In this document: positions 4,918 through 54,998 of the stretch, piece by piece | Layout of the letters: each line of letters starts with the position of its first letter | How positions within the stretch are numbered: position 1 is the first letter of the stretch | Assembly: GCA_963733375.1 (NCBI GenBank) | Contig: CAVTDB010000026.1 | Location: 320,001 to 384,000 of the forward strand | DNA length: 64,000 nt | Source: Nitrospirota bacterium | Lineage (GTDB): Bacteria; Nitrospirota; JACRHJ01 | Direction: 5' to 3' | Translations under genes and position numbers: made by a program | The notes under the pieces: generated by a model | Database searches by the model: none | Told to the model about the DNA's origin: nothing | The model's input: the letters and a program-made list of their open reading frames with translations, nothing else

Positions 4918-5478
4918 GTGGCAGGCTTTAATACCACGATGTCGAAAGAGGTGCTTCTTCTGGGACTCCTGAAGAGGAAGCCCATGTACGGCTATGAGAT
5001 AAAGCAGCTCGTGGACGAGGAACTCGTCCATGTCGCGCCCATCACCTCCGGCTCGCTGTATCATAACCTCAAAATCCTGGAAAAACGCGGCCTTGTGACC
5101 AAGAGCGTCCTCAAGGACACCGCGCACCCCGAAAAGCAGATTTACCATATCACGGACGAGGGCGTCCGCACCTTCGACAGCCTCCTTCAGGAGAACATTA
5201 CGAACTTCGAGCGTCCGCACCTGGCGCTTGACATATCCTTCTATTTCTTAAGGGAATCGGATGCGGGGCAGTTCCTTGATCAGCTCCGGGAACTCAGGGT
5301 ACGGCTTAAGGAGTATCACGCTGAAGCGGAGAGGTTTAAGGACGAACTGGCATCGAAGGGCGCGCCGGAAAATATGCTTTTCATCCCCGCGCATTACCTC
5401 GCGCACTCGGAGGCGGAGATAAAGTTTCTGGAAGGAATAATCGGCAGACTTGAGGCCGGAAGGGAAGGGGCTGCATGA
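4918..5478 (+). CDS. PadR-family transcriptional regulator
   Basis: LLGLLKRKPMYGYEIK, SGSLYHNLKILEKRGLV and IYHITDEG winged-helix motifs. Start is GTG 4918 or ATG 4939. Confidence 0.9.
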   Translation: MAGFNTTMSKEVLLLGLLKRKPMYGYEIKQLVDEELVHVAPITSGSLYHNLKILEKRGLVTKSVLKDTAHPEKQIYHITDEGVRTFDSLLQENITNFERPHLALDISFYFLRESDAGQFLDQLRELRVRLKEYHAEAERFKDELASKGAPENMLFIPAHYLAHSEAEIKFLEGIIGRLEAGREGAA

Positions 5479-6884
5479 AGTTCGAACTGGCCTGCAACTG
5501 GGACCCGGCGCTCCTTGAAGGTCTTGAAGGCGCCCCGAAGGTGGAGCTGTTCGGCGGCATTCCCGGAAGCCTTATCGCGGGGGGCAGGGCGTCGTTCGTC
5601 GCCCCGGAAGTGACGGAAGCCGACGCCGAAAAATACATCGCCGCCGCACGCGAAGCCGGGCATTCTTTCAATTTCCTCCTGAACGCCTCCTGCCTCGATA
5701 ACAGGGAGTACAGAAAGGACGAGTTCGAGAAGATACTCCGCCATGTAGAATGGGTGCAGGCGACCTCCGCGGACTGGGTGACGGTCACAATCCCCTACCT
5801 CCTGCAGATAATCAAAAAACATTATCCGTCATTGAAGCTCGTCGTTTCTTCCTGGGCGAGGGTGGAGAGCGTACGGAAGGCCCAGTACTGGGAGGAGATG
5901 GGCGCGGACGCTATCGTTTTGTCCGAGGAGATAAACCGCGATTTTAAAACCCTGGCGGCCATTCGCAGGGCGGTAAAATGCAAGCTTATCCTCATCGCCA
6001 ACCCCGGCTGCCTGTACGGATGCCCGCGCTCTTTCTACCACGCGAACGTCATGACACACGGCTCCCAGGGCAATCATTCCTCCGAAGGCTTCCTGGTTGA
6101 CCACTGCTATTTCTCCTGCACGAAGGACAAGATAAAAAACCCGACGGAGCTGATAAAGATACGCTGGATACGCCCCGAGGACGTGGAAGATTACGAGATG
6201 ATCGGCATTGACTGCCTCAAGATTATAGACCGGTACAAGACCACCGGGACGCTGCTTTCCTACCTGAAGGCATATACCGGCGGGCGGTTTGACGGGAACC
6301 TGGTGGAGCTTTTGAACCTTCCCCGCAAGAAGGCGTTCCTGCCCGCGAATGTAAAGTATCTCCTGAGGGATGAATATATAAATACGTCTAAATTAATGGA
6401 GTTCGCGGACATCACGGATTACCCGGTGACGGAAGGTCTGGTCCTGGATAACTCGAGGGTCCCGTCGAACTTCTTAAGCTTCTTCAAGACCAAGGACTGC
6501 GCGACGAGCGACTGCGAAGAGTGCGGGTACTGCGCCCTGATTGCCAAGAGGGCGCTTACGGTGGACAAGGCGCTGACGGGGGAGGCGGCGGGGAGGTACG
6601 AGGCGCTTTTGGAGTCGCTCGTTTCCGGTGAGATTTACCGGGAAGAGCCGGAGCCGGCGGCTGGCGAATGGGACGCCGAAGCGGTGACGGCGCACAAAAA
6701 ACTCCTTGATTTCGTGCCCGCGGTTTTCCGTTCGACCGCCGGGAAAAAAGTGTCCGCGGAGGTAAATGTCTTAAGCGGCGGGAAAGTAGGCCCGGACGAT
6801 ATTTACGCCGCATGGCGGAGGGCGACGCCCGCGCCGTTTAAGAAGATGGTAGAGGACAAGATCGCGGAGCTGAAGAATTGCTGA
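5475..6884 (+). CDS. peptidase U32-family Fe-S protein with C-terminal DUF2621/PCP_red-like domain
   Basis: FNFLLNASC, EINRDF..L..IR, ANPGCLYGCP...H, WIRPEDV..Y, KI.DR. Extra CxxxxCxxCxxC motif, then a helical domain from W at 6669. Confidence 0.8.
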   Translation: MKFELACNWDPALLEGLEGAPKVELFGGIPGSLIAGGRASFVAPEVTEADAEKYIAAAREAGHSFNFLLNASCLDNREYRKDEFEKILRHVEWVQATSADWVTVTIPYLLQIIKKHYPSLKLVVSSWARVESVRKAQYWEEMGADAIVLSEEINRDFKTLAAIRRAVKCKLILIANPGCLYGCPRSFYHANVMTHGSQGNHSSEGFLVDHCYFSCTKDKIKNPTELIKIRWIRPEDVEDYEMIGIDCLKIIDRYKTTGTLLSYLKAYTGGRFDGNLVELLNLPRKKAFLPANVKYLLRDEYINTSKLMEFADITDYPVTEGLVLDNSRVPSNFLSFFKTKDCATSDCEECGYCALIAKRALTVDKALTGEAAGRYEALLESLVSGEIYREEPEPAAGEWDAEAVTAHKKLLDFVPAVFRSTAGKKVSAEVNVLSGGKVGPDDIYAAWRRATPAPFKKMVEDKIAELKNC

Positions 6885-7396
6885 ACCACCACTTCGTGGA
6901 GATAAAGGCGCCCTTGGAGAGGATATTCGAAGAAATCATCCTCTGGGGTGAAAGCAAGTGGTGGCCTGATGAATCGCCCATGAAGTACAGCCGCGAAGAA
7001 AAGGGAGAGATAAAGGTCGGCACAAGATTCCATCAGAAAGTGCATAGGCCGTTCGCGCCGGAATGGGACGTCGAGGTAACCTCCATCGTCCCCGGACGCG
7101 AGGTCTCGAGGAAATTCATCAACGGGATGTTCAGGGGCACGGACAAGGTATATATAATCCCCAACCGCGGGTTCAACGAGGTCCATTTCCTGATGGACTA
7201 CGAAATAGTCGGGAATTTAAACCGCATCTTGTGGGCGCGCGTTTACCGGCGGATGCATGACGATAATATAAAACTGATTCTGCGCGCGCTGAAGGCGAGC
7301 CTTGAGGGCGAGGAAGTCTCGAAGCAAGAGGATTGGCTTTCTCCTGAAGAGCAGGACAGGAGACGTTTCTTCAAATCATTAATAAGGAGACATTAG
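6878..7396 (+). CDS. SRPBCC/START-fold protein (polyketide cyclase 2-like)
   Basis: VEIKAPLERIF..W..WWP start, VGTRF, C-terminal helix. Overlaps the U32 gene. Confidence 0.7.
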   Translation: MLNHHFVEIKAPLERIFEEIILWGESKWWPDESPMKYSREEKGEIKVGTRFHQKVHRPFAPEWDVEVTSIVPGREVSRKFINGMFRGTDKVYIIPNRGFNEVHFLMDYEIVGNLNRILWARVYRRMHDDNIKLILRALKASLEGEEVSKQEDWLSPEEQDRRRFFKSLIRRH

Positions 7397-7639
7397 ATGG
7401 ACTGGGAGACTGGGGCGCGGACGAAATTTGAAAAAATGATATCTATGATCCCATTTTTTCAGCGGAAGATGGCGGAGAGACTGGCGGGGAAGAAGGCGGA
7501 AGAATACGCGCAGGAACGCGGCGCGGCGCAAGTCGAAGAGCACCATATAGTAGCCGCGTTGATTGCCGAGACCCCGGCGCCGTTTCAGAGCAGTATGCGG
7601 GACACGGCCAGGACCGCGGGATTCGATATGCCGTCGTAA
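7397..7639 (+). CDS. stand-alone DUF2621/PCP_red-like small helical protein
   Basis: W...A...FEK...IP...R..A...AE..A.ERG...V...ETPAPF, homologous to the C-termini of the U32 and radical SAM proteins. Confidence 0.75.
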   Translation: MDWETGARTKFEKMISMIPFFQRKMAERLAGKKAEEYAQERGAAQVEEHHIVAALIAETPAPFQSSMRDTARTAGFDMPS

Positions 7640-7755
7640 CTCTCCTTTTTGCCACTCCTTAAGAAGGGGCAGAGGAGGATGGATTTGGTCTTAAATATCA
7701 ATAAATTTTTTCCTTAATCCCCCTCTTGGGTTAAGAGGGGGACAGAGGGGGCGTT
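7640..7755. repeat. intergenic C/G-run palindromes (REP-like)
   Basis: ccccctctt-gggtt-aagaggggg hairpin at 7719-7741 and a weaker one near 7655-7669. Confidence 0.45.
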
Positions 7756-7758
7756 ACT

Positions 7759-9625
7759 ATAAATTCCCGGATTTTATATATAGATTTATCTTCCGGGACT
7801 TCCGAAATAAAGGACATTCCGGAAAGCCTCCTGCGCAAATATATCGGCGGGCGGGGGATAAACAGCGCGCTGCTCTTTGAGAATACAAAAAAAGGCCTGG
7901 ACCCTTTAAGCCCGGAGAACCCGTTGATATTCGGCGCCGGCCTGCTGACCGGAATGCCGGGGCCGTCCTCCGCGAGACTGACCATCACCGGCAAGAGCCC
8001 GGAGAGCGGTCTTTTAGGCGACGCGAATATCGGAGGAGAGTTCGGATGCGCTTTAGCCTCCACGGGCGTCAGGCATCTGTTCATCACGGGGAAAGCAAAG
8101 CGGCCCGTTTACCTGCTTATTAAAAAAAATGGCGACGGGACATCCGCCGAAATAAAGGAAGCGTCGCATATCTGGGGCATGGACACAGTTCGAAGCGCAG
8201 GAGGTTATAAAAGAGGAGCATGGCGATAATGCGCATGTCGCCTGCATAGGCCCGGCCGGCGAGAACCTTGTCCGCTTCGCCTGCGTCATGCACGGCAGAA
8301 AGAACGCCGCGGGCCGCACCGGGATGGGCTGTCTGATGGGGGCCAAAAATTTAAAAGCGGTTGTGGCGGTAGACGCCGGGAAGGTCAAGCCGCACGACCC
8401 GGACGGTTTCGCGGCCCTTACCCATGAAATAAATTCGAAGCTCCGGACGGAATTCCTTACGCAGGACTTGGCGCGCTTCGGGACGGCGCATCTATATAAC
8501 GTAATAAATACGAACATCGAGATGGGCCGGACATATAACGGCCTCTCGACGAAAATGAAAGAGCCGGGTGACCTTGGCCCGGAGACGCTGGAAGCCCGGT
8601 ATTATTCGGGCAAACGCGGCTGCAGGCACTGCGCGGTAGCGTGCAGGCACTCGTATAAGATAACCGAAGGAAAACATGCCGGGCTGACAGGCGAAGGCCC
8701 GGAATACGGCATCATGGGACATATGGGGCCGGTGCTCGGGATAAACTCCGCCGAGGCGGTGCTCATGTTGAACGACAGGCTTAACCGCCTCGGTATAGAC
8801 GCAAGCTCCGCCGGCAACATAATAGCGTGGGCGATAGAATTATATAAAGAGGGTTTTATCGGAGACGCCGAGACCGGCGGGATGAAGCTGGACTGGAACG
8901 ACCCGGAGACGGCCGCCTTGCTTCTGGACGATATTGCATACAGAAGAGGGTTTGGAGACGTCCTGGCGGACGGCGCATCGGAGGCGTCGGCTAAGTTCGG
9001 AGATGACTCGGCCGGGCGCATGATCTGGGTGAAGGGCCTTCCGCAGTCGGACCCGGTAGACCTCCGGTTCATCAAGGCGTTCGCCCTTGGCGTCTCCACC
9101 GCGACCCGCGGCGCGGACCACCTTCGAAGCCGCTGCCCCTGGGAGGCGTTCGAATTCGATAAGGAATTTCTGGCGGGAATTTATGGCGGGCCGGTGGAGC
9201 CGGACCCGCTGAAATATGGCGGCAAGGGCCGGGTGGTCTGGTGGTGGGAAAGCTATCTCGCGCTCTTCGACGCGCTGGGGCTGTGCAAGCTCCTGGCCTT
9301 CCACACCTTGCCGGAGCCGGGCGTATTCGGCTTCGATGTATTCAGCGACTTAGTCAGGACGGGCAGCGGGATGGAGATAACGCCGGAGGAGATATTCGCG
9401 GCGGGACACGCTGTAACGGACGTGGAGCGCAGGTTCATCTGCCGCGAGGGCGTGGGACGAAAAGACGATTACCCGCCCATGAGGTATTTCGAGCCGCTTA
9501 TATGGCAGGACGGGCTGGACGACGAATCGCGGACGATGAAGCTCGACCGGGTATTGTACGACGGTATGCTGGACGAGTATTACGCCTGCCACGGCTGGGA
9601 CGTGAAAACAGGAAAACCTTATTAA
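7759..9625 (+). CDS. aldehyde:ferredoxin oxidoreductase family (W/Mo-pterin) protein (indel near 8188)
   Basis: RILYIDLS, YIGGRG, LDPLSPENPLIFGAG, KSP, CIGPAGENLVRFA, GRTGMG..MGAKNLKA, CxxCxxxC, EGPEY, RGADH, DALGLC, MLDEYY..GWD. Confidence 0.9.
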
Positions 9626-9708
9626 CCACGGATTATGCGGGTCGGGCTGATTTTAAAACCTGAAAATAGTTCTAACATTTAATCGGCTGAATCTGGTTTT
9701 AGGAAAAT

Positions 9709-10708
9709 ATGAAGATAGCGGTAATAGGCGCGGGGGCAATCGGGTGCGTGGCGGGGGCGCTTCTCCATGAGAAGGGCCACGCGGTTACCCTTGTTAGCCG
9801 CGACCCGCGCCAGGTCCGGGCGATTAACCGCGAAGGCCTGTCGCTTGACGGCATTTCGGCAAGGAATAATTTTGTCATATATGCCGCAAGGTCGCTGGAG
9901 TTCATTCCCGACCTGGCGCTCCTCGCGGTAAAGACGCAGGACCTGGAGACGGCATGCAACCAGATTGCGGGCATGGGCGATTTCCCGGCGCTGACGATGC
10001 AGAACGGCCTGATGGCCGACGAGATAGCCGGAAGCATCCTTGGCAGGGAGCGGATCATTTCGTCGGTCGTCATGTTCGGGGCGACATATAAAGAGCCGGG
10101 GCATGTAACGTATAACTTTCCCGGCGGCCTCGTTATAGGCAAGGCGTTCGGCCCGGACGGCGGCGGCATCGTAGAGAAGGCGAAGAATATGATGTCCGGG
10201 TCTTTAGAGGTGCGCGTAGCCGAAAACATCCAGGCCATGCACCGCGCGAAGCTGATACTGAACTTAAATAACGCGCTTGCCTGCGTACTGGGGAAGAGCC
10301 TGCAGGATACGTTTTCGGATAAACGGTATGTGCATATTGGGGCTGTCGATGATGCGCGAAGCATGGGAGGTTTTCGAATCCAGCGGGATGGAGATGGCCG
10401 ACCTCCCGAACCTGCCTCTGGAGAAATTGAAATCTCTGCTATACGCCCCGGAGGAAGTAGGGGCGCAGATTTACGGCAATATCATGCGGGGCCTTTCCCA
10501 CCTCCCCCTTCTCGGCTCCGTCCTGCAGAGCGTCATGCGGGGCCGCGCGTCGGAGGTGGATTATTTAAACGGCGAAGTCGCGAGGGCGGCTGGGAAGATG
10601 GGGCGGGAGGCAAAGTTGAATTCAAAGGCGGCGGAGCTGGTCAAGGAAATCGAAAATATAAATCAATTTCTATCAATCGAAGAGATGCTAGCGAGGTTCG
10701 GCTTATGA
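9709..10708 (+). CDS. ketopantoate reductase (PanE/ApbA) family oxidoreductase (indel near 10330)
   Basis: IAVIGAGAIG, LAVK, MQNG, KL..N..N. The shifted frame has GS.LQS..RGR.SEVDYLNGEV. Confidence 0.85.
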
Positions 10709-10968
10709 TGGAGTTTCCGGGTTTTCTGCTGACGGTGGACAGTCTTCAAAAAGAATGTTTCAAGGGATATAAAGTGGGTGATTCTTTTGAGGTAAAGGAC
10801 TTCGTGACGCCGCCCGACGGCTTCTGCGCCGGGGCGTATCATTCGCTCTTCCCGGTCATTTATGCCTGGACATTCGGCGCGGAATTCCCTTTCAAGGACG
10901 GGGAAGGGTGCGTCAGGACGACATGCCCGGACGGCGGGAAACTGACGTTCAAGGTGAGGAAATTATAA
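10705..10968 (+). CDS. TIGR04076-like small Cys-containing protein 1
   Basis: C..GYKVGD.F, P.GFC..AYH.LFP, FGA.FP, TCPDG...F. Confidence 0.75.
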   Translation: MMEFPGFLLTVDSLQKECFKGYKVGDSFEVKDFVTPPDGFCAGAYHSLFPVIYAWTFGAEFPFKDGEGCVRTTCPDGGKLTFKVRKL

Positions 10969-11237
10969 TGGCTAATCCCAAAAAAATGGTCATATCGGTC
11001 GAGGAAGTTTCCGGGCCGTGTTTTTATAAATACGAGCAGGGACAGGAGGTGGAGGTCCTGGGACTTCGGACGCCGGAAGGTTTCTGCGGCGCGGCGTACC
11101 ATACGCTGTTCCCCGTGCTCTTCGCCCTGAACTTCGGCGCGAAGTACCCCTTCATGGAAGACCCGAATTCCATCAACACCGTGACCTGCCCGGACGGCGG
11201 GTACGTGCGGTTCAAGGTCAGGAGGGTGGAGGGTTGA
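10968..11237 (+). CDS. TIGR04076-like small Cys-containing protein 2 (paralog)
   Basis: Same C...GFC..AYH.LFP...TCPDG pattern. TAATG overlap with copy 1. Confidence 0.75.
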   Translation: MANPKKMVISVEEVSGPCFYKYEQGQEVEVLGLRTPEGFCGAAYHTLFPVLFALNFGAKYPFMEDPNSINTVTCPDGGYVRFKVRRVEG

Positions 11238-12491
11238 ATCTCCGCAGGGTCGTCATAACAGGCCTGGGCGTCATCGCGCCGGGAGGCATCGGTAAAGACG
11301 CCTTCTGGGATTCCATGATAAACGCGCGGACGCAGACCGGGCTTATTACCGCATTCGATACCTCCGGGTTCCTTTCGAAGGTCGCGGCGGAAGTGAAGGG
11401 GTTCAACCCTGCCGCCTTCGGCATCTCATATGAAGAGGCCTCGGGGATGGACCGCTATCTGCAGTTCGCCCTGGCCGGGGCGAAACTGGCCGTGGAGGAC
11501 GCCGGGCTGGAATTCGGCGGCCTGGACGGAGAAAAGTGCGGAGTGGCGCTGGCTAACGCCATATGCGGGACGAAATGGATGGAGGAGGAGTTCCTGCGCG
11601 TTACCGGCAACGGACATGGGCCGATCGACCCGGCCCTCGCGTCGCCGTATCTGTACGATGCGTCCATATTCAATTCTCCCGCCAACTTCATAGCCGCGCG
11701 CTATGGCTTGAAAGGCGGGGCGTGCGTCATATCCACCGGCTGCACGGCCGGGACGGACTCGGTCGCCTATGCGTATGAAAATATCCAACTCGGTTTATGC
11801 GACATGATGATAACCGGCGCGTCCGAGGCCCCGATTACGCCGATAGCCCTTGCCGCATTCGACGTGATAAAGGCGCTCTCGAAGCATAACGACGAGCCCG
11901 GGGCGGCGTCCCGTCCTTTCGACAGGACGAGGAACGGGTTTGTCCTGGCCGAGGGCGCGGGGATACTGGTACTGGAGGAATACGGGCACGCGGTGAAGCG
12001 CGGAGCGAAGATATACGCGGAGATAGCGGGTTTCGGCTCCACGTCCAACGCATTTCACATGACGGATCTGCCGAAGGACGGCGAAGCCCTGGCCCGGTCA
12101 ATAAAAATGGCTATGGACGAGGCGCGGGTCAATGCCGACGACGTGGATTACATAAGCTCTCATGGAAGCTCCACGGAACAGAACGACGTCTTCGAGACGA
12201 ACGCGATAAAGACGGCGCTTGGGGAACATGCCTGGCGGGTGCCTGTCAGTTCCATTAAGATCCATGATAGGACATCCGCTTTCCGCGGCGAACTCCATCG
12301 AGCTTGCGCTTTCGGCGATGGTGATGGAGCGGGGCGTAATCCCGCCGACAGTGAATTACCGTGAGCCGGACCCTGCATGCGACTTCGATTATGTGCCAAA
12401 CGTGGCGCGGGATAAAAAGGTGGACGTGGTGATAAAAACGAGCAGCGGGTTCTCCGGGATCCATTCGTCAATGGTCTTGAGGCGGGCATGA
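11234..12491 (+). CDS. type II PKS ketosynthase alpha (indel near 12258)
   Basis: RRVVITGLGV.APGG.G, STGCTAG active Cys, SRPFDRTRNGFVL.EG, NAFHMT, SHGSST.QND, VPVSSIKSMIGH, CD.DYVP..AR. This is the aromatic KS-alpha pattern rather than FabF. Confidence 0.92.
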
Positions 12492-13694
12492 GACGCGCGG
12501 TCATAACAGGCATAGGGGTGGTAAGTCCGGCGGGCAACTCGCCTGAAGAATTATTCGACAGGCTCTCCTCGGGCGAGGGCTTCACGGGCGAGATCAGCCG
12601 CTTCGACGCTTCGCGCTACCCGTCGCGTCATGCGGGGCTGGTACATGATCCCGGCGGGGAAGAGATATTTTCCAAGAGGCTCCTTAAGAAGCTGGACAGG
12701 TTCTCGCACATGGCGCTCTCCGCCTCCGACGGGGCGATTCAAAGACAGCGGGATAAACCTGGACGCCGAGGACAAAAACCGGGTCGGGATAGCCTTCGGC
12801 AACGCCCTGGGCGGCTGGTCGTTCGCGGAGGAGGAACTGCGGGACCTCTGGACTCACGGCCTTCGTGAAGTCAGCCCGTACCAGGCGACCGCATGGTTCC
12901 CGGCGGCGCCGCAGGGCCAGATATCCATTTTCTACGGTATAAAGGGTTTTTCCAAGACCATAATCTCCGACATCGCCAGTTCGCATCTCGCTATCGCTTA
13001 CGCCGCGCGTGCCATTCAAACGGGCAAGGCGGACGTGATGTTAGCTGGCGGCACCGAAGCGCCGGTATCGCCTTACGCGCTTCTGTGCTGCAACACCTCC
13101 GGGGAGCTTAGCCTGACCGGGAGCTACAGGCCCTTCAGCAAGGGCCGCGACGGGTATATAATCGGCGAAGGGGCGGCCGTACTCGTCATCGAAGAGATGG
13201 AAAAGGCGGTCGCGAGGGGGGCCAGGATATACGCGGAGGTAAAGGGTTTTGGGCACACAAGCGACGGGATGCACCCGACAATGCCTGATCCGTCAGGCGA
13301 CGGCATGGCCCGCGCCATCGGACTAGCGATGCGGCAGGCCGCTGTCTCTCCATCCGAAATCGGGATGGCTATCCCATCCGCGAATGCGGGGAAAGAAGCC
13401 GATTTATCCGAGGGAAGGGCCCTTTTAAAAATCTTCGGAAACAGGGCTTCTGAACTGCCGATTTATTCGCCGAAGCCGCAGACGGGGAATTTACTGGGGG
13501 CGTCCGGCGCGCTCGATACGGCGTTTGCCTGCATGGCGCTTGGCAGAGGTGAGACGCCGACCCTCAAGGTAATTGATCCGGAATTTGATTTCTTTGACGG
13601 CGGCGGAAAAAAGAAGATCGATAAGCGGGATATCATTATAAATTCCATCGGGCGTGGCGGGGTAAACGCCTGCCTTTTAATCGGAAAGCCTTAA
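12488..13694 (+). CDS. type II PKS chain length factor (KS-beta) (indel near 12738)
   Basis: KS paralog without the catalytic Cys or the two His. GGW.FAE.EL..LW..G...VSPYQ..AWF.AA.QGQISI and KPQTGNL.G..GALD motifs. Confidence 0.9.
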
Positions 13695-13708
13695 GGTAAG
13701 GGGTAAAG

Positions 13709-13946
13709 ATGACGGTAGAAGAGAGGGTCGAAAAAGTTTTCGAGGAAATAGGCATAGACAAAGCTGAACTTCGTCCGGAAGTCGACTTTGAAAAGCGATC
13801 TCGGGATTGACTCGACGGAGATGGTGGAACTGATGGTCGCGCTGGAAAAAGAATTCTCGGCCAAAATCCCCAACGGCGTGATAAACGGCGGGAGCACGGT
13901 CCGCGAGATAATCGACTATTTTCTAACCGTGGCGGCCAGGTCTTGA
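13709..13946 (+). CDS. acyl carrier protein (not in ORF track; +1 indel near 13779)
   Basis: MTVEERVEKVFEEIGID... then in the shifted frame STLKSDLGIDSTEMVELMVALEKEF..KIP......TVREII, carrying the phosphopantetheine Ser motif. Confidence 0.88.
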
Positions 13947-14713
13947 AAATAATCGACCTGAGCACCCCGATAGACGACCTGGCGCCGGAGCCTTTTCCGG
14001 TACAGGTGACCCGGATTGGCCATGAGGAGGGTGCGGAGAGGGTAGGGGAGAAATTTCCCGGAGAGAAGAAAATCGGCGGCGATACTTTCCCCGGCGGGAT
14101 GTTCCTGTCCCATGAAACCGTCCAGGCGTCGGTGCACTGCGGGACGCATGTGGACGCGCCGTGGCATTTCGGGCCGGAGTCGGAAGGACGGCCGGCGAAG
14201 AAGATAGACGAGGTCCCACTTGAATGGTGCTATGGGGACGGTTTTGTAATTGACATGAGGGCCCTGCCGCCGGGCGGAGAGATAAAGCCGGAGGACGTGA
14301 GGCGGGGCTTGAGAGAGATCAATTACCAGCCGAAACCGGGCGACATCGCGCTTATCAGGACCGGGGCGGACAGCTATTTCGGCACAAAGGAATATTTTCT
14401 GAAATTCGCGGGCCTGAATGTCGATGCGGCGGAATATTTATTCGGTCTTGGAATCAGGACCATCGGGACCGACGCGCCGGGCCTGGACAGGCCTTTTATG
14501 GATATGGTCGCGGATTATCAAACGACGGCGGACAACTCGAAACTCTGGCCGGTACACATGCTGGGAAGAAAAAAAGAATACTGTCATATAGAGAGGCTCG
14601 CAAACCTTGGCGCGCTCCCGAGGGCGCACGGATTCAAGTTCGCCTGTTTCCCGGTAAAGATAAAAAACGCGGGCGCGGCATGGGCACGCGCCGTGGCTAT
14701 ATTCGAGGACTAA
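13943..14713 (+). CDS. polyketide second/third-ring cyclase (kynurenine formamidase-like cyclase family)
   Basis: IIDLS, HCGTHVDAPWHF, IDEVPLEW..G.G, IGTDA..LDRP, EYCHIERLANL. DpsY/OxyN/ZhuJ-type by motif and position. Confidence 0.85.
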   Translation: MKIIDLSTPIDDLAPEPFPVQVTRIGHEEGAERVGEKFPGEKKIGGDTFPGGMFLSHETVQASVHCGTHVDAPWHFGPESEGRPAKKIDEVPLEWCYGDGFVIDMRALPPGGEIKPEDVRRGLREINYQPKPGDIALIRTGADSYFGTKEYFLKFAGLNVDAAEYLFGLGIRTIGTDAPGLDRPFMDMVADYQTTADNSKLWPVHMLGRKKEYCHIERLANLGALPRAHGFKFACFPVKIKNAGAAWARAVAIFED

Positions 14714-14723
14714 AGGAAAAATA

Positions 14724-15152
14724 ATGGCACACACCAAAAATTCCATATTCATAAACGCGCCTTATGGGAGCGTGTTCGACATTACGAACGACATCGAGCG
14801 CTGGCCCGAGCTTTTCGACGAGTATTCGGACGCGAAAATCCTTTCGCGCGAAGGAAACAAAATAACCTTCCAACTTACCAACAAGGAAGGGAAGTCCTGG
14901 CGCTCCAGCCGCATCCTGGACAAGCCCGGGCATAAATGCTCCGCGAAACGCGAGGAGCCGATGTTCCCGTTCAAATACATGGACCTCCTCTGGACATACG
15001 TCGAGAAAGACGGCGGGGTGGAGATGACCTGGGAGCAGGACTTCTCCATGGACGAAAAAGCGCCGGTGGACGATAAGACGGCCGAGGCCCGCATAAACGA
15101 GCACTCGAAGAAGAACATGCAGAGGATAAAAGAAATAATCGAGGGAATATGA
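14724..15152 (+). CDS. monodomain aromatase/cyclase (TcmN/WhiE-ORFVI-like)
   Basis: HT.NSI.I.AP...FD.TNDIERWPELF.EY, W.S.R, PF.YM...W.Y, M.W.QDF.M...AP.DD, IN..S..M..IK. Confidence 0.9.
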   Translation: MAHTKNSIFINAPYGSVFDITNDIERWPELFDEYSDAKILSREGNKITFQLTNKEGKSWRSSRILDKPGHKCSAKREEPMFPFKYMDLLWTYVEKDGGVEMTWEQDFSMDEKAPVDDKTAEARINEHSKKNMQRIKEIIEGI

Positions 15153-15875
15153 AGATACTTGGCATCTGCGGGACGCACAAGAGGGGGAAGCAGAAATCCG
15201 CCAGCGATTATTTTCTGCGCAAGGCCCTTGAGGCCGCCGAAGAAAAAGGGGCCGAGTCGGAAGTTATCCGCCTGATAAATTACAACGTGAAGCCATGCCT
15301 CGCGTGCAACCGCTGCCTCTGCGGCCTTACCTGCCCTTTGCTCGAAGACAAGGACGACGACGGGAAGCTCATTTTCGATAAAATGTCGGAGTCGGACGCG
15401 TTTATTTTTTCGTCCCCGGTCTATGCCTATCAACAGCCCGCGATAGTCATGAACCTTTTGCACAGGACCCGCCCCTTGCACGAGCAGGAGCGTTCGGAGA
15501 TATGGGGGACGACTATCACCGCATACCCGAAAAACCCTTTCAAGGGCGCCCCGGTGGGCAACCTCGCGGTAGGCGCGGCGCTCGGGATGGAGGGTGCGCT
15601 CTATTACCTGTTCCATTACCTGAAGGCGATGACGGCGACTTCTGTCGCGTGCGCGGGGATCGCTCTGATGGACGCGGAGATGAGGAACCTCTGCATGGTG
15701 GGAAAGCGTTTCGCGATGGAGCATCCCGGTTTTAAAACACTGCTGGACAAGCCGATGCCGTCTTACGAGGAGAATAAACCCGCCAGCAATGATGGCGCGT
15801 GCGGTGGGCGAGCAGGTGTTCGACGTGTGGAATTCGGAGCTTTTTCAAACGATAAAAGAAGTGCTGAGATATTGA
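15149..15875 (+). CDS. iron-sulfur flavoprotein / flavodoxin-fold FMN reductase (indel near 15783)
   Basis: MKILGICG, CLACNRC..(x5)C, D..I.SSPVY. The corrected frame ends at TGA 15875. Confidence 0.8.
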
Positions 15876-16853
15876 TGATATTCGACTCTCATTTCCATCT
15901 GTTGCCGGATGAGGTAATCAAGCACGCCTCGTTCTACAACGACTCCTGGGGCGGTATGGACGGCCATCTTCGTGCAATGGACGAGGCCGGTGTCTCGCGC
16001 GCGCTTATCTCTTATCCGACTACCGATTTTCATCTGAAGGCCGCCCTTGCGGAAACGGATGCGGCGCGGGTATATAACGGGGCGGTGAAGGAAATAGCCG
16101 AGCGGTCGGCGGGACGGATTTCGTGGCTTGGGTCAGTGCCCTTGACAGGGCCTGACGAGATGGTCTCTCTGGGCGAAGAGGCATTGGCGCAAGGCGCGCG
16201 CGGGTTTACCATGCCGACGAACAGCGGCGGGATATATCCGGACGACCCGCGGTTCCTGCCTTTTTTCGAGAAGGCCGAAGGGTGGGGAGCGCCGATATTT
16301 TTTCATCCCACCACGCTTACTCCGTTCGGGTCCGAGAGAGCTGCGCCACCCGCTGATAACGCCCGTGTTCCAGTACGCGTTCGATACCACGCTCTGCCTC
16401 GCCAGGGTTATCGACTGCGGCCTGCTGAAAAAGTTCCCCCGGTTGAAGCTTGTGTTCGCGAGCTTCGCGGGCGTGATGCCGTTTCTTGCGGGCAGATACG
16501 GCAGGACGTACAAGATGCTCCTTGGCCGGGGGATAGTGAAGGACATGGGCGAGGAGCCGGGTGAGACGTTGAAGAAAATTTACGTGGACACTTCCGGCAC
16601 GGCGGACGTAAAGATGCTGGAGCTGGCGATAGATATATTCGGCGAGGACAGGGTGCTGTGGGGAAGCGATTTCCCGGCGAACCGTGAGATAAAGGCGTCG
16701 ATAGACGCCGTTAACGCTCTAAGTTTGAAGCCGCCTTCCAAACAAAAAATTTTGCACGAGAATTTAGATAAGCCTTGCTCGGTTTTTAACCCCGGTTTTC
16801 TTTGGTTACTTTCTTTTACCCAAAAGAAAGTAACGAAAGGTTTTGAATGTTAA
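15875..16853 (+). CDS. amidohydrolase-2 family protein, probable aromatic-acid decarboxylase/hydrolase (indel near 16337)
   Basis: DSHFH metal motif, MDEAGV..A, FFHP, KFP.LK, YVDTS, DRVLWGSDFP. Confidence 0.8.
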
Positions 16854-18052
16854 TAATAAAAAGGTTTTGATCTTCGGCGCGGGGATCGCGGGTCTTTCGA
16901 CGGCCTATTACCTGCGGAAGGAAGGCTGCCAGCCGGTCGTCTACGAGAAGAGGCCGGATGCGGGCGGACGGTTCGCGACGCTGGAATATGAAGGGGTATA
17001 TATAAATAAAGGCGCGATGATGTTCGCGCCGGCGCTGAACCCGCACTTTACGGAACTGATCAGGGAACTGGGCGTGTCGCACGAGCTTATCAGGCTTAAA
17101 AAATTTGCCCTCCAGATAGGCGATGAAATCACCGGCCTGGATTCCTGGTCCATGTTCAGGAGCGGCTTTTTTACTTTTTCCGAGTACATGCAGTGGAGGC
17201 GGCTGAAGAAGTTTATAAAGGGCCTGGACTTCCGATCTTGAGAGCTGGGACCCGAAGCTTCAGGAGCTTCATTCGATTTCGCTGGAAGAGTTCTGCGTCC
17301 GCGAGATGGGCTATTCGCAAAAGATGCTGGACTACATCGTCCAGCCGTTCTCCAGCTTCGGGTATATCGACCCGCCGCACATTGCCGCGGACCATGGGCT
17401 GTTCCTGTTCGCATACGGCGATTCGCCCGTGCGCGTCCCGCACAAGGGGATGGCGGAGGTGGCGGCCGAGCTTGTCCGGAGGATGCCGGGCGTCGTAAAG
17501 ACGGGGTATAAGGTAGAGAGGGTAAAGAAAAATGCATCAGGGACTTTTGATGTAAACCTTAAGGGGCCGGAGGGAGCGCCTTTGAAGGAGACGGCGGACT
17601 GCGTGGTGTTCGCCACCGGCCAGGAGAGCCTCGGCAAGGTGATGCCGGAGATAACGGTGGACGTGAAATCCACTAAGACGCGCGGAGTGATATTCGAGTC
17701 CCGCACCCCCCGGTACGGCAAATACGACGTCCTGCTTTTTTCCAAATATAAAAACCGCCACGGCATACACGGCGGAGAGATGAAACACCTGCCTGACGGC
17801 AGGACCATCGCCGGGATGTTCATGTACAGGCCGGACGCGGACATCGAGGCCGTGTTCGGGAAATATAAAGAACTGCCGAAGGTCGGCTGGTCTCCGGCGA
17901 TAACGCTCATCCCGCCGGGGAGCAGGACGAGAGGCATCGAGACAGAGGTTCCGGGCGCATTCCTGGCCGGAGATTTCTACCGGCTTCCGTGCATCGAGTC
18001 ATGCGTTTACACCGCGAAAAAAACGGTGCAGGCGATAAAGGGGCTTGCCTGA
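16843..18052 (+). CDS. FAD-dependent oxidoreductase (amine oxidase/HemY-like fold; indels near 17235-17290)
   Basis: GAGIAGL.TAYYL, YEK...AGGR, KGMAEV..EL, C-terminal FLAGD......IESCV.TA. Confidence 0.78.
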
Positions 18053-18054
18053 CA

Positions 18055-19416
18055 ATGTCATATGACGCGGTAATAATCGGCGCCGGTCTTGGCGGGCTTT
18101 CCGCCGGAGCGTATCTTTCGCGCGCCGGGAAAAAAGTGCTGGTGCTGGAGAAGATGTCCGAGCCGGGCGGGCGATGCCGGACGGTGGAGCTTATGGGGCA
18201 CCGCTTCGACATCGGCGCGGACTATTTCGGCAAAAAATTACTCGGCGTATTCTCGGAGCTTGGGAAGAGAAAAGAGCTGGAGCCGGTATGGTTCAAGGTG
18301 CGGGCGAATTGCGCGGGTTCCTCCATGACCATCCCGCCGGGCCTGCATACGCCTAAGGACCTTCGCGGCATGGGGATGGGGACGAAGGATATCGGCCGCT
18401 TCGGCCTTAATATGGGCGGGCAGATATTATTCAACCGCTTCAGGAAAATCTCCAATTACAAAGAACTGATAAACAGGATTACCGACAACCCGAGCCTCCG
18501 GGAGATACTGAATGTCGGCGCGTTCTTCTCCGGGAACGAACCTGAAAACATGCCGTCTCACTGGTTTAACCTGGTCTTCGGCAGGACGTATGGATACGAC
18601 AGGCCGTTCATACCCAGGGCCGGTGCGGGGAGGCTGCCGGAGCTTCTGGCCGACGTCATCCGCGAGAGCGGCGGCGGCATAGTCTATAACGCGCAGCCGA
18701 AAAAGATAATGATAAGCGACGGCAAGGCGAAGGGCGTCCTGCTGGACGGCAGGGAGATAGAGGCGGAGAACGTCATAAGCGGGACGGGCATTTTGCAGAC
18801 CGTGCACTCACTCGCGGGCAAGGAATATTTCCCGCAGGGGTTCCTGAACACGCTGGGCTACTACAAAGAGGGTTTTTGCATGGCGAGCGTGTTCACGGTG
18901 TTCAAGAGGAGCGCGAAAATTACTCCGGGCGTGCACCTCTACGCGATGTTCCCGAAAAGTGTCGGCGGGATGTTCAGGACCCTGAAAGACGGCTCCTTTC
19001 CGCAAGATAACATGTATGTCATCTCCGTCCCCGGCGCGGCGCACGACAGCGGCGGGGAGCATCTTGCCGGCACCATAAAGTTCCTCGTGCCCAAGGGCAT
19101 TATCGCAAGAGAGGCTATCGAGGCCGAGGCCGGGAAAGTAATGGCTAAAATGGATTCGCTGATTCCGGGCTTCCGGGAGAGCGTAATAGAGAGCAGGCTA
19201 TACACGCCGATGGACTATGCGGTTAATTTCGGTTTTGTCAGTTCCGTCTCGCCTGTCGCCGAGAGCGTGCATTACGAGAAGATGGATACAAATACGCCGG
19301 TCAAGGGATTATACTGCGTAGGCTCCACGGTGCTTCCGGCAGGCGGCTGTGCCGCGTCGTCGGTGCTGTCCGGCAGGGCCGCCGCGAGACTTATAATAAA
19401 GAATGGCGGAAGTTAA
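18055..19416 (+). CDS. phytoene desaturase-family FAD/NAD(P) oxidoreductase
   Basis: YDAVIIGAGLGGL.A..L...GKKVLVLEK...PGG, FD.GA, L.....GG.I, TP.D, TPVKGLYCVG....GG......SGR.AA. Confidence 0.85.
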   Translation: MSYDAVIIGAGLGGLSAGAYLSRAGKKVLVLEKMSEPGGRCRTVELMGHRFDIGADYFGKKLLGVFSELGKRKELEPVWFKVRANCAGSSMTIPPGLHTPKDLRGMGMGTKDIGRFGLNMGGQILFNRFRKISNYKELINRITDNPSLREILNVGAFFSGNEPENMPSHWFNLVFGRTYGYDRPFIPRAGAGRLPELLADVIRESGGGIVYNAQPKKIMISDGKAKGVLLDGREIEAENVISGTGILQTVHSLAGKEYFPQGFLNTLGYYKEGFCMASVFTVFKRSAKITPGVHLYAMFPKSVGGMFRTLKDGSFPQDNMYVISVPGAAHDSGGEHLAGTIKFLVPKGIIAREAIEAEAGKVMAKMDSLIPGFRESVIESRLYTPMDYAVNFGFVSSVSPVAESVHYEKMDTNTPVKGLYCVGSTVLPAGGCAASSVLSGRAAARLIIKNGGS

Positions 19417-19489
19417 AATCTCGAAAGGAGGCGAATGGGGTTAGCCGAGTTTTTATTTATTAACCTGATTATCTGACAGGAGGAATGCA

Positions 19490-20080
19490 ATGAAAAAAAT
19501 GCTTTTAATAATGGCCGTCGTCGCACTTTTGATACCTGTTAATGCCTTAGCCGGGTCGAGTGGCCCGGGAGTCCTCGACAAAGAGAACGTGATGACGGAC
19601 AAGAGCCTCGCGAAGTACAAGAGCATCGGGATCAAGATATTCTCCACGGACAACATAGAGTACAATAACGTGGACGACGAGGAGAAGCAGAGAGATGAAG
19701 GGCTACCTGAAGGGACTGGCAGGAGATGCTCGCAAGGACCTGTGAAGAACGAGCTTAACGGGGACAGGGTCACCGCCTTTATAATCGATCCGGACGGCAA
19801 GAACGCCGGCAAGGCGGACATGATAATCGAAGGGCGAGTTATCGCAGATAAACATGGGAAGCGCATTCAGCAGGATGGTTCTGGGGGATGGGCGCCGGCG
19901 GGCGGGGGTCACCGTGAAGGGCAAGCTGATAGACGCCAGGACCGGCAAGGAACTCGCGACAGTTCGAGCACGAAAGCACGTCCGGACTCCAGGGCGGCGA
20001 CAAATGGTCGATGGTGGCAAACAGGGTTAAGGCCACGGGCGACAAGATAGACTGAGTTCGTAGAGAAACTGAGCAGATAA
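19490..20080 (+). CDS. exported protein, DUF4410-like (several indels)
   Basis: AGGAGG RBS and signal peptide MKKMLLIMAVVALLIPVNALA. Stitched frames give IIEG....INMGS..SR...GMGAG...VTVKGKLIDA.TGK.LA. Confidence 0.55.
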
Positions 20081-20116
20081 AGGCCGCACAAGTCCCGGCA
20101 TTCTGGAGTATAAGGT

Positions 20117-21679
20117 TTGCGAACTTTTGTATCCGTGAACAGGGAGACCGAGCCTTTCACCGCGGCCCCGCTCGGCCTTGCGCTCGTCGCTCAAGCGCTC
20201 CGCCTTGCGGGGCACGACGTGCATGCGCTCGACCTCCTTTTCGCGGAAGACCCGGAAGCTGAGCTGAAGCAGGCAATCAGTTCTCTCTCTCCGGATTTCA
20301 TAGGCGTCTCGATTCGGAACATCGAGTCTTCCAGCCGTTTTCTCCTGCCGGATTACAAGGAAGTCATCGGGCTGATAAAGCGGGAGACGGAGGCCCCTGT
20401 CGCTTTGGGGGGGCCGGGATATTCCATCATGCCGAAGGCCGCCCTTCAATATCTGGGAGCGGATTACGGGATAGCCGGAGAGGGAGAAGTGGCCATGCCG
20501 ATGCTTGCGGACGCGCTTTCCGGGAAGACGCCTTTCTCGAAGGTACCCGGCCTTTGCCGGTTCGAAGGCGGCTCCTATATCCAGAACCCGGCAAGTCCGC
20601 TCAGCCTTGATACGCTCGGCCTGCCCGCGTGGGAGTTCTTCCCGGCCGAAAATTACGACATGATAGGGGTCCAGTCTAAACGCGGCTGTTCCTTCTCGTG
20701 CGTCTATTGCACCTATCCGGGGCTGGAAGGAAGAGAAATGCGCCTGCGGCCCCCGGAGGAAGTGGCGCGCGAGATGAGCGGCGCGATAGACGCCGGACTG
20801 ACGGCCCCTTTTTATTTCGTGGACAATATATTCAATAATCCGCCCGGCCACGCCGCCGCCGTATGCGATGAAATAATTAAACGCGGGATTAAAGCTTCCT
20901 GGGGATGCCTTGCAAGCCCCGTCGGACTGGACGGCAGGCTCCTTGATAAGATGAAGCGGGCGGGGTGCGAGAGCGTGGAGGTGGGCGCGGACTCCCTGTC
21001 CGACAGGATGCTCTCAAAGCTCGGTAAGAAGTTCGGGAAGGACGAGGCCGTGAACGCCGTCCGGGCCGCGAAGGAGGCGGGGCTGATGAGCCTCGTGTTC
21101 CTGCTCCTGGGCGGGCCGGGCGAGGACGGGGATTCGCTTAAAGAGACCTTCGACGCCCTTGAGGAGCTGCAGCCGGATAAAGTGTTCGCCGTCGCCGGAG
21201 TGCGGATATATCCGGGCACGCCCCTTGCCCGCATAGCCGAAAATGAGAAATTGATTTCGCCCGAAGACCCGCTTATGGAGCCAAAGTTTTACGTCTCGGA
21301 CAAGCTGGGCGACGGCCTTTATTCCATCGCGGGGGAATATTTCAAGACTCATCCGGACTGGGTCTGCTATCCCGCCAATGGTATTTTACAGGGAATGCAT
21401 CCGAAAGGTATCAGTTCGGGAAGGGGTCTTCATTCACAACCGAAGGATGCCCTGTGGGACGATTTCGCATTGGAGGTGTTCGAGAAAGTCCTGCTGGAGG
21501 TCCCGGCGCTCCTTCGGCCTATTGCGCGCAAGGCCATCCGGAAAAAGGCGCAAGGGGCGGTAAAATCCGGGTCGGTAAAAGCCTCCGACGTAAAGGACGC
21601 TTTTCTCTCCGAGACGCCCCGGCCTTTTCAGGGGCCGATGAGGGAAGCCTTAAGGAAACTGGGGCTGGCCGATGGTTAA
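20117..21679 (+). CDS. B12-binding radical SAM protein with C-terminal DUF2621/PCP_red-like domain
   Basis: PLGL..A..L...GHDV..LD and PDFIGVSIRNI (cobalamin domain), KRGCSFSCVYC, FVDNIFN, RIYPGTPL. Helical tail from W at 21455. Confidence 0.9.
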   Translation: MRTFVSVNRETEPFTAAPLGLALVAQALRLAGHDVHALDLLFAEDPEAELKQAISSLSPDFIGVSIRNIESSSRFLLPDYKEVIGLIKRETEAPVALGGPGYSIMPKAALQYLGADYGIAGEGEVAMPMLADALSGKTPFSKVPGLCRFEGGSYIQNPASPLSLDTLGLPAWEFFPAENYDMIGVQSKRGCSFSCVYCTYPGLEGREMRLRPPEEVAREMSGAIDAGLTAPFYFVDNIFNNPPGHAAAVCDEIIKRGIKASWGCLASPVGLDGRLLDKMKRAGCESVEVGADSLSDRMLSKLGKKFGKDEAVNAVRAAKEAGLMSLVFLLLGGPGEDGDSLKETFDALEELQPDKVFAVAGVRIYPGTPLARIAENEKLISPEDPLMEPKFYVSDKLGDGLYSIAGEYFKTHPDWVCYPANGILQGMHPKGISSGRGLHSQPKDALWDDFALEVFEKVLLEVPALLRPIARKAIRKKAQGAVKSGSVKASDVKDAFLSETPRPFQGPMREALRKLGLADG

Positions 21680-22572
21680 AGGGACTCATTCATACCGGCT
21701 GGACAAGCACTCTATCTACTGGTGGATCTCCTGGGGGGCGAGGTATATCCCGACCCCTCTCGCCAACTTGATAGGGGACAGGATCGCCGACTGGCTATTC
21801 TATTATAAATCCGAAAATATCGTCCCCGAGCAGGTAAGGAACCTGGACCACGTCCTGGGCCCGGACGTCCCGCATCGGGAAAAGTTCAAAACCGTGCGGA
21901 AACTCTGGCGCAGCCACGGGAGATTTCTGCTGGACCTCTTCCGTTTCGAGCGGATGAGCGACGCCGAGATAGCCTCGCGCGTGCCGGAATTTTTAGGCCT
22001 GGACAATATTCAAAAAGCGGTCGAGGACGGGAAGGGCGCGATAATCTTGACCGCACACATAGGCCATTGGGAGCTGGGCGGGATACTGCTGAAATACCTC
22101 GGGTTCAAGTTAAACGTCGTCCAGCACCTCTACGACTCGGAGGAGCAGAACCGCCTTTTAGACAGGAACAAGGATATCAGGGGGATAAAAATTATCTCCA
22201 CCAACGACCCCGCCGGGTTTGCCCTGAGCGCGTATAACGCCCTGAAAAGAAATGAACTCGTGGCGATTCAGGGGGACAGGGACTTAAGCAGGTCCGGCAT
22301 CAGGGTGGATTTCTTCGGGAAACCGGCGGCGTTCCCCAGGGGGCCGGCGCTTCTGGCCATGAAAACCGGCGTGCCGCTTATACCCGCGTTCACGATAATG
22401 GGAAAGGACGGCAAATACCATCCCGTCGCGGAGCCGCCGATAGAGATGACGGCTACCGGGGACACTGACGCAGGACCTGCGGGTAAACATAAGGAAAATC
22501 GCCGCTGTATTTGAAAAATACGTGCGCAGCCACCCTGAGCAGTGGTTCAATTTTTATTATTTTTGGGATTAA
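21672..22572 (+). CDS. lipid acyltransferase (LpxL/HtrB-like LPLAT; indel near 22470)
   Basis: TAHIGHWE (Hx4E), QGDR, VDFFGK.A.FP.GPA.LA. Corrected C-terminus is HPEQWFNFYYFWD. Confidence 0.85.
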
Positions 22573-43952: not shown

Positions 43953-44010
43953 CCGTCATTCCTGCGAAGGCGGGAATCCAGGAATTTGTACGTTGTCATT
44001 CTGAGAGCGC
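43953..44010. repeat. GTCATTCC-type REP palindrome(s) at the left edge of an AT-rich insertion
   Basis: cgtcattcctgcgaaggcgggaatcca hairpin, then a second gtcattctgag half-site. A related sequence tgtcattccgagcgcagcg lies at 2951-2969. Confidence 0.6.
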
Positions 44011-44021
44011 CCGATAGGGAA

Positions 44022-54064: not shown

Positions 54065-54071
54065 ATAGCGC

Positions 54072-54992: not shown

Positions 54993-54998
54993 ATCGTT

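Follow-up and report, generated by a model that had tools for sequence, protein, structure and literature searches.

Small non-catalytic domains placed on several enzymes of one pathway are known from the PqqD-like RiPP recognition elements (RRE; RiPP, ribosomally synthesised and post-translationally modified peptide), which occur free or fused and are often found N-terminal to radical S-adenosylmethionine (SAM) enzymes with a SPASM domain. In O2-independent ubiquinone synthesis, UbiU and UbiV are Fe-S hydroxylases of the U32 family and UbiT is a lipid-binding helper of the SCP2 type. BchL, the electron donor of DPOR, docks onto the BchNB body. The C-terminal helix of BchB is described as covering the cavity of its own enzyme complex (PMC4071322). 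Finally, the putative ladderane cluster of anammox bacteria is described with amxACP, amxFabZ, two FabF, a PDH-like protein and a B12-radical SAM enzyme, and the same source mentions that production of a ladderane-type radical SAM enzyme failed (PMC10139942). We compare these systems with a gene cluster of an uncultured Nitrospirota bacterium (GTDB lineage Bacteria; Nitrospirota; JACRHJ01) contained in a stretch of 64,000 nucleotides (GenBank assembly GCA_963733375.1, contig CAVTDB010000026.1, positions 320,001 to 384,000 of the forward strand), which we call the window and from whose first letter its positions are counted. One domain of about 75 residues occurs three times in this window: as the C-terminal tail of a U32-family protein, as a free-standing protein and as the C-terminal tail of a B12-binding radical SAM enzyme.

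The likeness to the RRE domains, a small non-catalytic domain carried by several tailoring enzymes of one pathway, is an analogy of logic only. The window domain is a four-helix bundle and the RRE a winged helix, Pfam scans of the three copies up to E 10 gave no PqqD or RRE match, and the window cluster is built around an acyl carrier protein (ACP) and ketosynthases (KS) with no precursor peptide evident. With UbiU, UbiV and UbiT the cluster shares the association of a U32 enzyme with small ligand-binding helpers, and some relatives of the domain unite U32, domain and SCP2 in one chain; by analogy with the role of UbiU and UbiV, the window U32 protein may be an O2-independent Fe-S hydroxylase-type enzyme, although an additional Cys-rich region and the helical tail set it apart and ubiquinone genes are absent. 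The core that the ladderane sources describe, namely an ACP, a FabF pair, phytoene-desaturase-like flavoproteins and a TIGR04072-like B12-radical SAM enzyme, is common to both clusters (PMC10139942, PMC13459092), but the window enzyme does not reach the TIGR04072 cut-off (333 vs 360 bits), and the window cluster showed no FabZ and adds U32, cyclase, SRPBCC, aldehyde:ferredoxin oxidoreductase (AOR) and radical SAM-SPASM genes. The term 'U32' occurs 0 times in the main text of the anammox paper (PMC10139942).

Three homologous copies of one domain

The claim that one helical domain is used three times in the window came from a sequence-only reading, and the translations of 6669-6884, 7397-7639 and 21455-21679 are exactly the three strings quoted there. 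All three lie on the + strand. They correspond to the C-terminus of the open reading frame (ORF) 5475-6884 (copy 1, the U32 tail, 6669..6884), to the free ORF 7397-7639 (copy 2, a protein of 80 aa, 7397..7639) and to the C-terminus of the ORF 20117-21679 (copy 3, the radical SAM tail, 21455..21679). Pairwise BLASTP aligned the U32 tail with the free copy (20/67 residues identical, E 1e-7) and with the radical SAM tail (20/69, E 5e-8), and the free copy with the radical SAM tail (23/74, E 1e-11), so that the identity is 29-31% over 67-74 residues and significant similarity links all the segments. Aligned together, the three copies are invariant at 14 columns (W3, A7, K13, P19, R23, A26, K32, K33, V46, A54, T59, P60, P62 and F63), in agreement with the motif W-x3-A...K...hP-x3-R-x2-A...TPxPF proposed earlier. 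When a profile of the three copies was run against the organism's own genome (an assembly of 2.39 Mb, 81% complete; E <= 1, 16 candidates scored), the sole matches were the three copies themselves, with E values of 2e-39, 6e-35 and 4e-33. By these comparisons the three segments are homologous, with a similarity well beyond chance, and the idea of a single domain in three settings is borne out.

Relation to PCP_red and DUF2621

The sequence-only reading had also noted a resemblance to DUF2621 (PF11084) and to PCP_red (PF08369), the C-terminal domain of BchB/ChlB and BchZ. Taken individually, the window copies do not reach the Pfam cut-off of either family. Against PCP_red (cut-off 32.5 bits), the free copy scores 25.4 bits (E 1.5e-5) and the radical SAM tail 16.3, with no match for the U32 tail; in the whole-genome scan the scores are 24.4 and 15.9 bits. 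Against DUF2621 (cut-off 27.7 bits), the free copy scores 17.8 bits (17.4 in the genome scan) and the others 11.9 and none, and the window copies match only model positions 57-123 of 139.

The resemblance becomes firm at the level of the family. A profile search among 1.84 billion representatives found just 122 relatives at E <= 0.001, of which 78 are free-standing and no longer than 120 aa. We aligned 71 members (69 free relatives and the two tails), collected by a search in which the window copies themselves served as profile, and found W3, P19, R23 and P60 near-invariant. DUF2621 is matched by 58/71 members (best E 6.7e-21) and PCP_red by 35/71 at E <= 0.01 (best 2.1e-11), and an archaeal free copy passes the DUF2621 cut-off with 38.7 bits. 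Searched against 177,635 solved sequences, the family profile ranked 2l09 (the stand-alone protein Asr4154) first (E 0.014) and 2kru, the C-terminal domain of BchB, third (E 0.13), with the histone-fold protein 1f1e (E 0.055) between them. In the ESM Atlas, the free copy has clusters labelled DUF2621 as its neighbours, at 0.94-0.95. Because family members match both models and the profile retrieves 2l09 and 2kru, the copies are placed by sequence in the PCP_red/DUF2621 superfamily, as a distinct subfamily of it; the proposed likeness thus stands for the superfamily and not for the window copies as members of either Pfam family.

The differences from both families are substantial. PCP_red and the window copies are alike in their N-terminal motif (W..eA...l..iP.f.R) and may share a helical fold of similar size, but the window copies are about 30 residues longer and contain an additional, fourth helix as well as the TPxPF motif, their hosts are a U32 protein, a B12-radical SAM enzyme and a free ORF instead of a nitrogenase-like BchB/BchZ subunit, a setting encountered in other phyla only, and the window cluster is without a tetrapyrrole pathway. 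With DUF2621, the family matches model positions of about 50-137 of 139, and the N-terminal third of DUF2621 is absent from it. The domain family is catalogued in Pfam, yet it is uncharacterised: we found no relevant paper on PCP_red/PF08369, and none in the library searched that has the term DUF2621. As far as our literature searches reach, the repeated use of several copies on U32, radical SAM and prenyltransferase enzymes is undescribed.

Predicted fold

The AlphaFold2 (AF2) model of the free copy as a monomer (pLDDT 97.2, pTM 0.86) shows four helices and a small two-stranded bridge, and the U32 tail adopts the same four-helix arrangement in the model of its full-length host, where a low-confidence linker (residues 392-394) precedes helices 401-413, 416-433, 440-450 and 453-467. 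On the basis of these models the domain is predicted to be a compact, autonomous four-helix bundle of about 75 residues; we regard it as non-catalytic.

The closest structural matches of the free copy are the AAA+ lids of the Mg-chelatase subunit ChlI/BchI (6l8d, Z 10.1, 78/80 residues, rmsd 2.5, sequence identity 12%; 1g8p, Z 9.3), followed by other AAA+ lids at Z 7-7.7 and histone folds at Z ~6. The fold is alike, but the window copies lack the AAA+ P-loop core and their only fused hosts are U32 or B12/radical SAM enzymes, and such Z values are common among small helical bundles. The same caution applies to 2l09, which aligns over 56/62 residues with rmsd 2.5 at a Z of 6.3, a value common in helical bundles. 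With Foldseek, 2l09 was found at TMt 0.63 and E 0.6, and no match in the PDB reached E <= 0.001, the top rows being histone H2B at E 0.2; neither 2kru nor any DPOR chain appeared among the structural matches listed.

Host proteins of the two tails

The host of copy 1 is a U32-family protein of 469 aa (5475..6884, + strand), which scores 45 bits against Pfam Peptidase_U32 (cut-off 22.4) and whose AF2 model has the U32 peptidase Mk0906 as its best solved match (5d88, E 2.8e-9, TMt 0.72). Its best NCBIfam match is TrhP, at just 24 bits. Four cysteines (Cys73, Cys342, Cys350 and Cys353) are invariant in this protein and eight homologues and may form the site for an Fe-S cluster. The motif C342-x7-C350-x2-C353 falls outside the region covered by the Pfam U32 model.

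Copy 3 ends a B12-binding radical SAM enzyme of 520 aa (20117..21679, + strand), with Pfam matches to B12-binding (64.5 bits) and Radical_SAM (67.8 bits). Of 43 NCBIfam families the best is TIGR04072 (rSAM_ladder_B12), with 333.4 bits for a cut-off of 360, and this match spans residues 4-416 and stops before the tail.

Conservation of the trio in related genomes

We searched 41 genomes, including the window's own, with the profile of the three copies and found matches in 15 of them, the window's own counted. They comprise nine of the 11 other genomes of the same family and all four of a second family; among 25 genomes of eleven further families one matches, weakly (E 0.004). The better-assembled relatives show the trio as in the window, with a tail on a frame of 472-490 aa, a free frame of 80-101 aa and a tail on a frame of 515-544 aa, the last lying about 14 kb away from the rest of the trio. 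In a genome of the same genus all genes of the cluster are intact and in identical order.

These comparisons bear on the trivial explanation that the resemblance is due to chance or that the fusions were made by assembly errors. Such errors do exist in the window assembly, in which at least nine genes between 7900 and 27100 are split by frameshifts: those for the AOR-family protein, PanE, both ketosynthases, the ACP, the amidohydrolase, one desaturase-like protein, the radical SAM-SPASM enzyme and HemN. All the split genes of the cluster are intact in the same-genus genome, HemN being outside the stretch compared. The window frameshifts are therefore probably the mark of an indel-prone assembly and not of pseudogenes. 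Given the pairwise E values of 1e-7 to 1e-11, the repetition of the fusions in 13 other genomes of two families with open frames of matching length and the intact cluster of the same-genus genome, we consider chance or artefact refuted and give it a negligible probability. Both tail fusions, whose frames are intact in the window assembly, are by the same comparisons genuine.

A domain tree of 32 sequences, left after removal of three exact duplicates from 35, places the eight Nitrospirota free copies from the two families in one clade (96/99), and in the window's family the U32 tails (100/99) and the radical SAM tails (81/92) each form a clade of their own. Since each type forms its own clade, the three Nitrospirota types are, by their phylogeny, old paralogues.

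Fusion partners and multi-copy sets in other phyla

The survey of fusion partners and neighbourhoods that the sequence-only reading had suggested revealed the domain on U32, radical SAM, prenyltransferase, nitrogenase-like and NuoE/NuoF-like proteins in several phyla. Among the 44 longer family representatives, U32 hosts are nine with a Pfam match and 12 that match the window U32 by phmmer, mostly as C-terminal fragments. Family members of 174-348 aa had been considered as fusions to a further N-terminal domain, perhaps similar to the 172-aa SRPBCC protein; phmmer shows instead that they are C-terminal U32 fragments, and the 172-aa SRPBCC protein of the cluster matches none of them. Further hosts among the 44 are U32 + SCP2 proteins (P0045, P0096), B12-radical SAM enzymes, radical SAM-SPASM enzymes with the domain N-terminal, LuxC + radical SAM-SPASM, ABBA aromatic prenyltransferases with the domain at either end, and PNPOx-like, glyoxalase-fold, HpaB and LicD proteins. 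A metagenomic protein of 999 aa (P0142) is composed of domain, radical SAM-SPASM, domain, prenyltransferase and an SCP2-like region, the last scoring 20.1 bits, slightly below its cut-off.

In a Thermoplasmata genome, a prenyltransferase with a C-terminal copy adjoins a radical SAM-SPASM enzyme with an N-terminal copy; a radical SAM-SPASM-SCP2 protein is encoded alongside, and directly 5' of a U32 gene lies a free copy. The archaeal prenyltransferase and SPASM copies are sisters in the tree (100/99), which points to a separate duplication. The cluster that contains them (L104, 6374-11547) holds one ABBA prenyltransferase, three radical SAM-SPASM enzymes, one of them with SCP2, and two domain copies.

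In the Thermodesulfobacteriota group, 16/301 genomes match at E <= 1e-5 and contain as many as 8 copies each; the hosts are nitrogenase-like subunits, NuoE-like 2Fe-2S proteins, NuoF-like proteins, Usp, DUF3108-like proteins and a B12-radical SAM enzyme. The nitrogenase-like subunits bear one or two C-terminal copies, the second one being a canonical PCP_red domain. Two such loci (L137, L138) encode D/K-type subunits in non-phototrophic genomes, with NifH-like and ferrochelatase/CbiX genes nearby and with tails made of the subfamily domain followed by canonical PCP_red. The NuoE-like proteins have two tandem N-terminal copies and the NuoF-like proteins one (L117, L129, L134); at another locus (L136, 7273-9948), a NuoE-like gene with tandem copies forms an operon with genes for ferredoxin-type proteins and an FAD oxidoreductase. 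The Thermodesulfobacteriota genomes with a tailed U32 protein have, in the 4/4 examined, a single copy, on U32 only, and in one of them the U32 gene overlaps a B12-radical SAM gene without a tail.

Of 80 U32 loci fetched with a three-sequence U32 alignment, 18 have the domain and 62 are tail-less relatives. The tail-less genes often lie beside B12-radical SAM and ketosynthase genes, and across this U32 subfamily neighbourhoods with FabF-like ketosynthase genes and as many as five B12-radical SAM genes per locus (e.g., L039, L042, L045, L047, L032) occur in Omnitrophota, Planctomycetes, Elusimicrobia, Desulfobulbales and DPANN archaea; no domain copy was present in the Planctomycetes U32 loci examined. 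From this gene context the U32/B12-radical SAM partnership appears widespread and wider than the domain. Among the papers listed by a literature search on this partnership, none contains 'peptidase U32'.

Possible function of the domain

The most economical reading, which we tentatively favour, makes the domain a portable recognition or adaptor module at the service of each of the enzymes; docking of the copies on each other, docking of electron donors alone and a fixed lid each meet contrary evidence. Each enzyme that needs the module would carry a copy in cis or obtain one in trans from the free protein, which would serve a partner devoid of a fused copy. The module would engage a common component of the pathway, a hydrophobic intermediate or its carrier protein (the ACP or an SRPBCC-type binder), and the U32 and B12-radical SAM enzymes would act on the same lipid-like substrate. 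By analogy, a hydrophobic intermediate or its carrier is most plausibly the target, in line with the SCP2, ABBA prenyltransferase, U32 + SCP2 and SRPBCC proteins found among the fusions and neighbours. The adaptor reading is built on the autonomous fold, the predominance of free family members, the N- or C-terminal placement and the presence of one copy per catalytic domain, a ratio kept by the neighbouring prenyltransferase and radical SAM-SPASM genes of the Thermoplasmata genome and in the 999-aa protein, though its enzymes are covalently joined. Two analogies guided it: the C-terminal part of BchB, closing over protochlorophyllide, and the RRE domains, seen as one shared handle for several RiPP enzymes.

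Several points weigh against such an adaptor or limit the reading. The cavity-covering helix of BchB may lie outside the PF08369 region, in which case the first analogy would concern another part of the protein. No hydrophobic ligand is expected in the NuoE-like, NuoF-like, Usp and nitrogenase-like hosts. The three Nitrospirota paralogues, ~30% identical, diverged long ago, which suits specialised roles more than a shared ligand. The matches to AAA+ lids (Z 7-10) and histones (Z ~6) are generic for small helical bundles and functionally uninformative. The predicted complex of the 172-aa SRPBCC protein with the free copy (ipSAE 0.01 and 0.01, for a mark of 0.32) speaks neither for nor against binding.

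The sequence-only reading had proposed that the copies dock the Fe-S enzymes into a complex, or onto ACP-bound substrate or an electron donor. In the first of these explanations the copies would bind each other as homo- or hetero-oligomers and bring the U32 enzyme, the B12-radical SAM enzyme and the partner of the free copy into a metabolon. We regard it as unlikely, even though multi-copy sets exist in three unrelated settings (the Nitrospirota trio, Thermoplasmata, and NuoE-like with NuoF-like proteins), the sister copies of Thermoplasmata belong to neighbouring genes and face each other, and the U32 and B12-radical SAM enzymes probably cooperate, since their genes adjoin in many phyla. Taken together, the Thermodesulfobacteriota genomes, in which U32 alone is tailed and, in one of them, the adjacent B12-radical SAM enzyme is seen to be tail-less, and the 999-aa protein, which retains two copies despite the covalent linkage of its enzymes, argue against obligatory copy-to-copy docking and oppose it as a general role; moreover, the monomer is modelled as a closed, confident bundle that would need no partner to fold. 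A tether for low-potential donors (ferredoxin, flavodoxin or NuoE/F-type modules) was part of the same proposal, and it suits those partners that are Fe-S or flavin redox proteins, which are the majority: U32, B12-radical SAM, radical SAM-SPASM, nitrogenase-like, PNPOx-like and HpaB. The domain is also present on electron-transfer proteins themselves, namely the NuoE-like and NuoF-like proteins, which are encoded in an operon together with proteins of the ferredoxin type. Among the products of the window cluster are, moreover, an FMN-reductase-like flavoprotein and a ferredoxin-dependent AOR. Other hosts, such as the ABBA prenyltransferases, glyoxalase-fold proteins, LicD and Usp, need no electrons, which argues against a purely electron-donor docking role; no ferredoxin or flavodoxin of the window cluster has a copy, and the donor of DPOR docks on the BchNB body. 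We find this role improbable.

An equally improbable explanation, in our estimate, dispenses with any shared partner: each copy would pack on its own enzyme as a lid, a solubility aid or a regulatory element, and the free copy would be a detached subunit of a nearby protein. The helix of BchB that covers the cavity of its own complex, the existence of single-copy genomes and the similarity to AAA+ lids, which pack on their own ATPase core, are in line with an intramolecular cap. The position of the domain nevertheless varies from host to host (N- or C-terminal on prenyltransferases, N-terminal on radical SAM-SPASM, C-terminal on U32 and B12-radical SAM), the catalytic folds of the hosts are very different and 78/122 representatives are free; an integral lid would rarely change position in this way or occur so often as a protein of its own. 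Returning to the adaptor, a broader version of it would make the PCP_red/DUF2621 module an RRE-like pathway handle of anaerobes for non-ribosomal small-molecule and lipid pathways, of which the BchB/BchZ domain would be one specialised case. U32, B12-radical SAM, radical SAM-SPASM and ABBA prenyltransferase enzymes would thereby be directed to one carrier-bound hydrophobic intermediate. We consider this generalisation doubtful.

Gene content of the cluster and its surroundings

The cluster covers about 18 kb, and its gene order from U32 to radical SAM-SPASM is collinear in related genomes, which supports the earlier suggestion that the region is one system from end to end. All the cluster genes described below are on the + strand. 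Directly after the U32 gene comes that of an SRPBCC-family (polyketide-cyclase/START-like) protein of 172 aa (6878..7396), which overlaps the U32 stop by 7 nt and ends immediately before the ATG of the free copy. This protein has no Pfam match; its assignment comes from its ESM Atlas neighbours, SRPBCC/Polyketide_cyc2 clusters at 0.95, and from its 15 homologues, one of which is named 'SRPBCC family protein' in its source and one of which has PF10604. We also considered that it could be a duplicate of the other SRPBCC gene of the cluster; no similarity was detectable by BLASTP (E 1.4).

Downstream of the free copy lies a frameshifted gene for a tungsten or molybdenum oxidoreductase of the AOR family (7924..9625), with AFOR_N and AFOR_C in separate ORFs. 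Its intact counterpart in the same-genus genome (556 aa) has AOR as nearest solved relative (9mqx/1aor, E 1e-69 to 1e-70); a BamB-type benzoyl-CoA reductase was rejected, as BamB matches residues 6-159 only (E 1e-29) and AOR is closer. Library scans of the next region (9709..11237), whose frames are disturbed, found a PanE/ApbA-like reductase and two small proteins of the TIGR04076 family, which are separate genes in the same-genus genome (332, 87 and 109 aa). The two TIGR04076-family proteins stand directly upstream of the ketosynthase pair, two FabF-like genes (11234..13694) that are both frameshifted in the window and intact in the same-genus genome (418 and 401 aa). The ACP gene (13709..13946) is split by a frameshift into two short ORFs that jointly encode an ACP with the LGIDS motif; the same-genus genome has the gene undivided, as an ORF of 78 aa.

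A Pfam scan identified a cyclase (PF04199) and the second SRPBCC/polyketide-cyclase protein (13943..15152). They are followed by an FMN-reductase-like flavoprotein and an amidohydrolase (15149..16853), merged or frameshifted here and two genes in the relative, and by two phytoene-desaturase-like flavoproteins (16843..19416), the first of them frameshifted. The product of 19490..20050, for which library scans gave no family match, has an N-terminus that looks like a signal peptide by eye and a counterpart of 201 aa in the relative. Beyond the B12-radical SAM gene, whose stop it overlaps, is the gene of an LpxL/lysophospholipid-type acyltransferase (21672..22514; Lip_A_acyltrans, 127 bits), and the cluster ends with a frameshifted radical SAM-SPASM gene (22644..24036) that is an intact 463-aa ORF in the relative. 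The N-terminal extension of about 110 aa of this enzyme was tried as a fourth copy of the domain and rejected, its hhalign probability against the family being 0.2. To judge from the KS pair, the ACP, the cyclase and the other genes, the product of the cluster is presumably similar to a fatty acid or a polyketide.

Just downstream of the cluster are subunits of a 2-oxoacid:ferredoxin oxidoreductase (TPP_enzyme_C and POR, 24217-25522), which is a possible local source of reduced ferredoxin. Further on, two stretches of the window have a low GC content (0.38 in 44001-46000 and 0.41 in 54001-58000, vs ~0.56 elsewhere) and may be foreign islands.

Implications

If the domain is indeed a shared adaptor, it would provide a handle for spotting which enzymes of cryptic anaerobic clusters cooperate. 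It would also explain the coupling of U32-type Fe-S enzymes with B12-radical SAM enzymes, which are neighbours in many phyla, and co-expression of the free domain would suggest itself for the insoluble 'ladderane-type' radical SAM enzymes. Should it turn out to be only a structural cap, its recognition would still be a useful annotation of a conserved gene cluster of the Nitrospirota.

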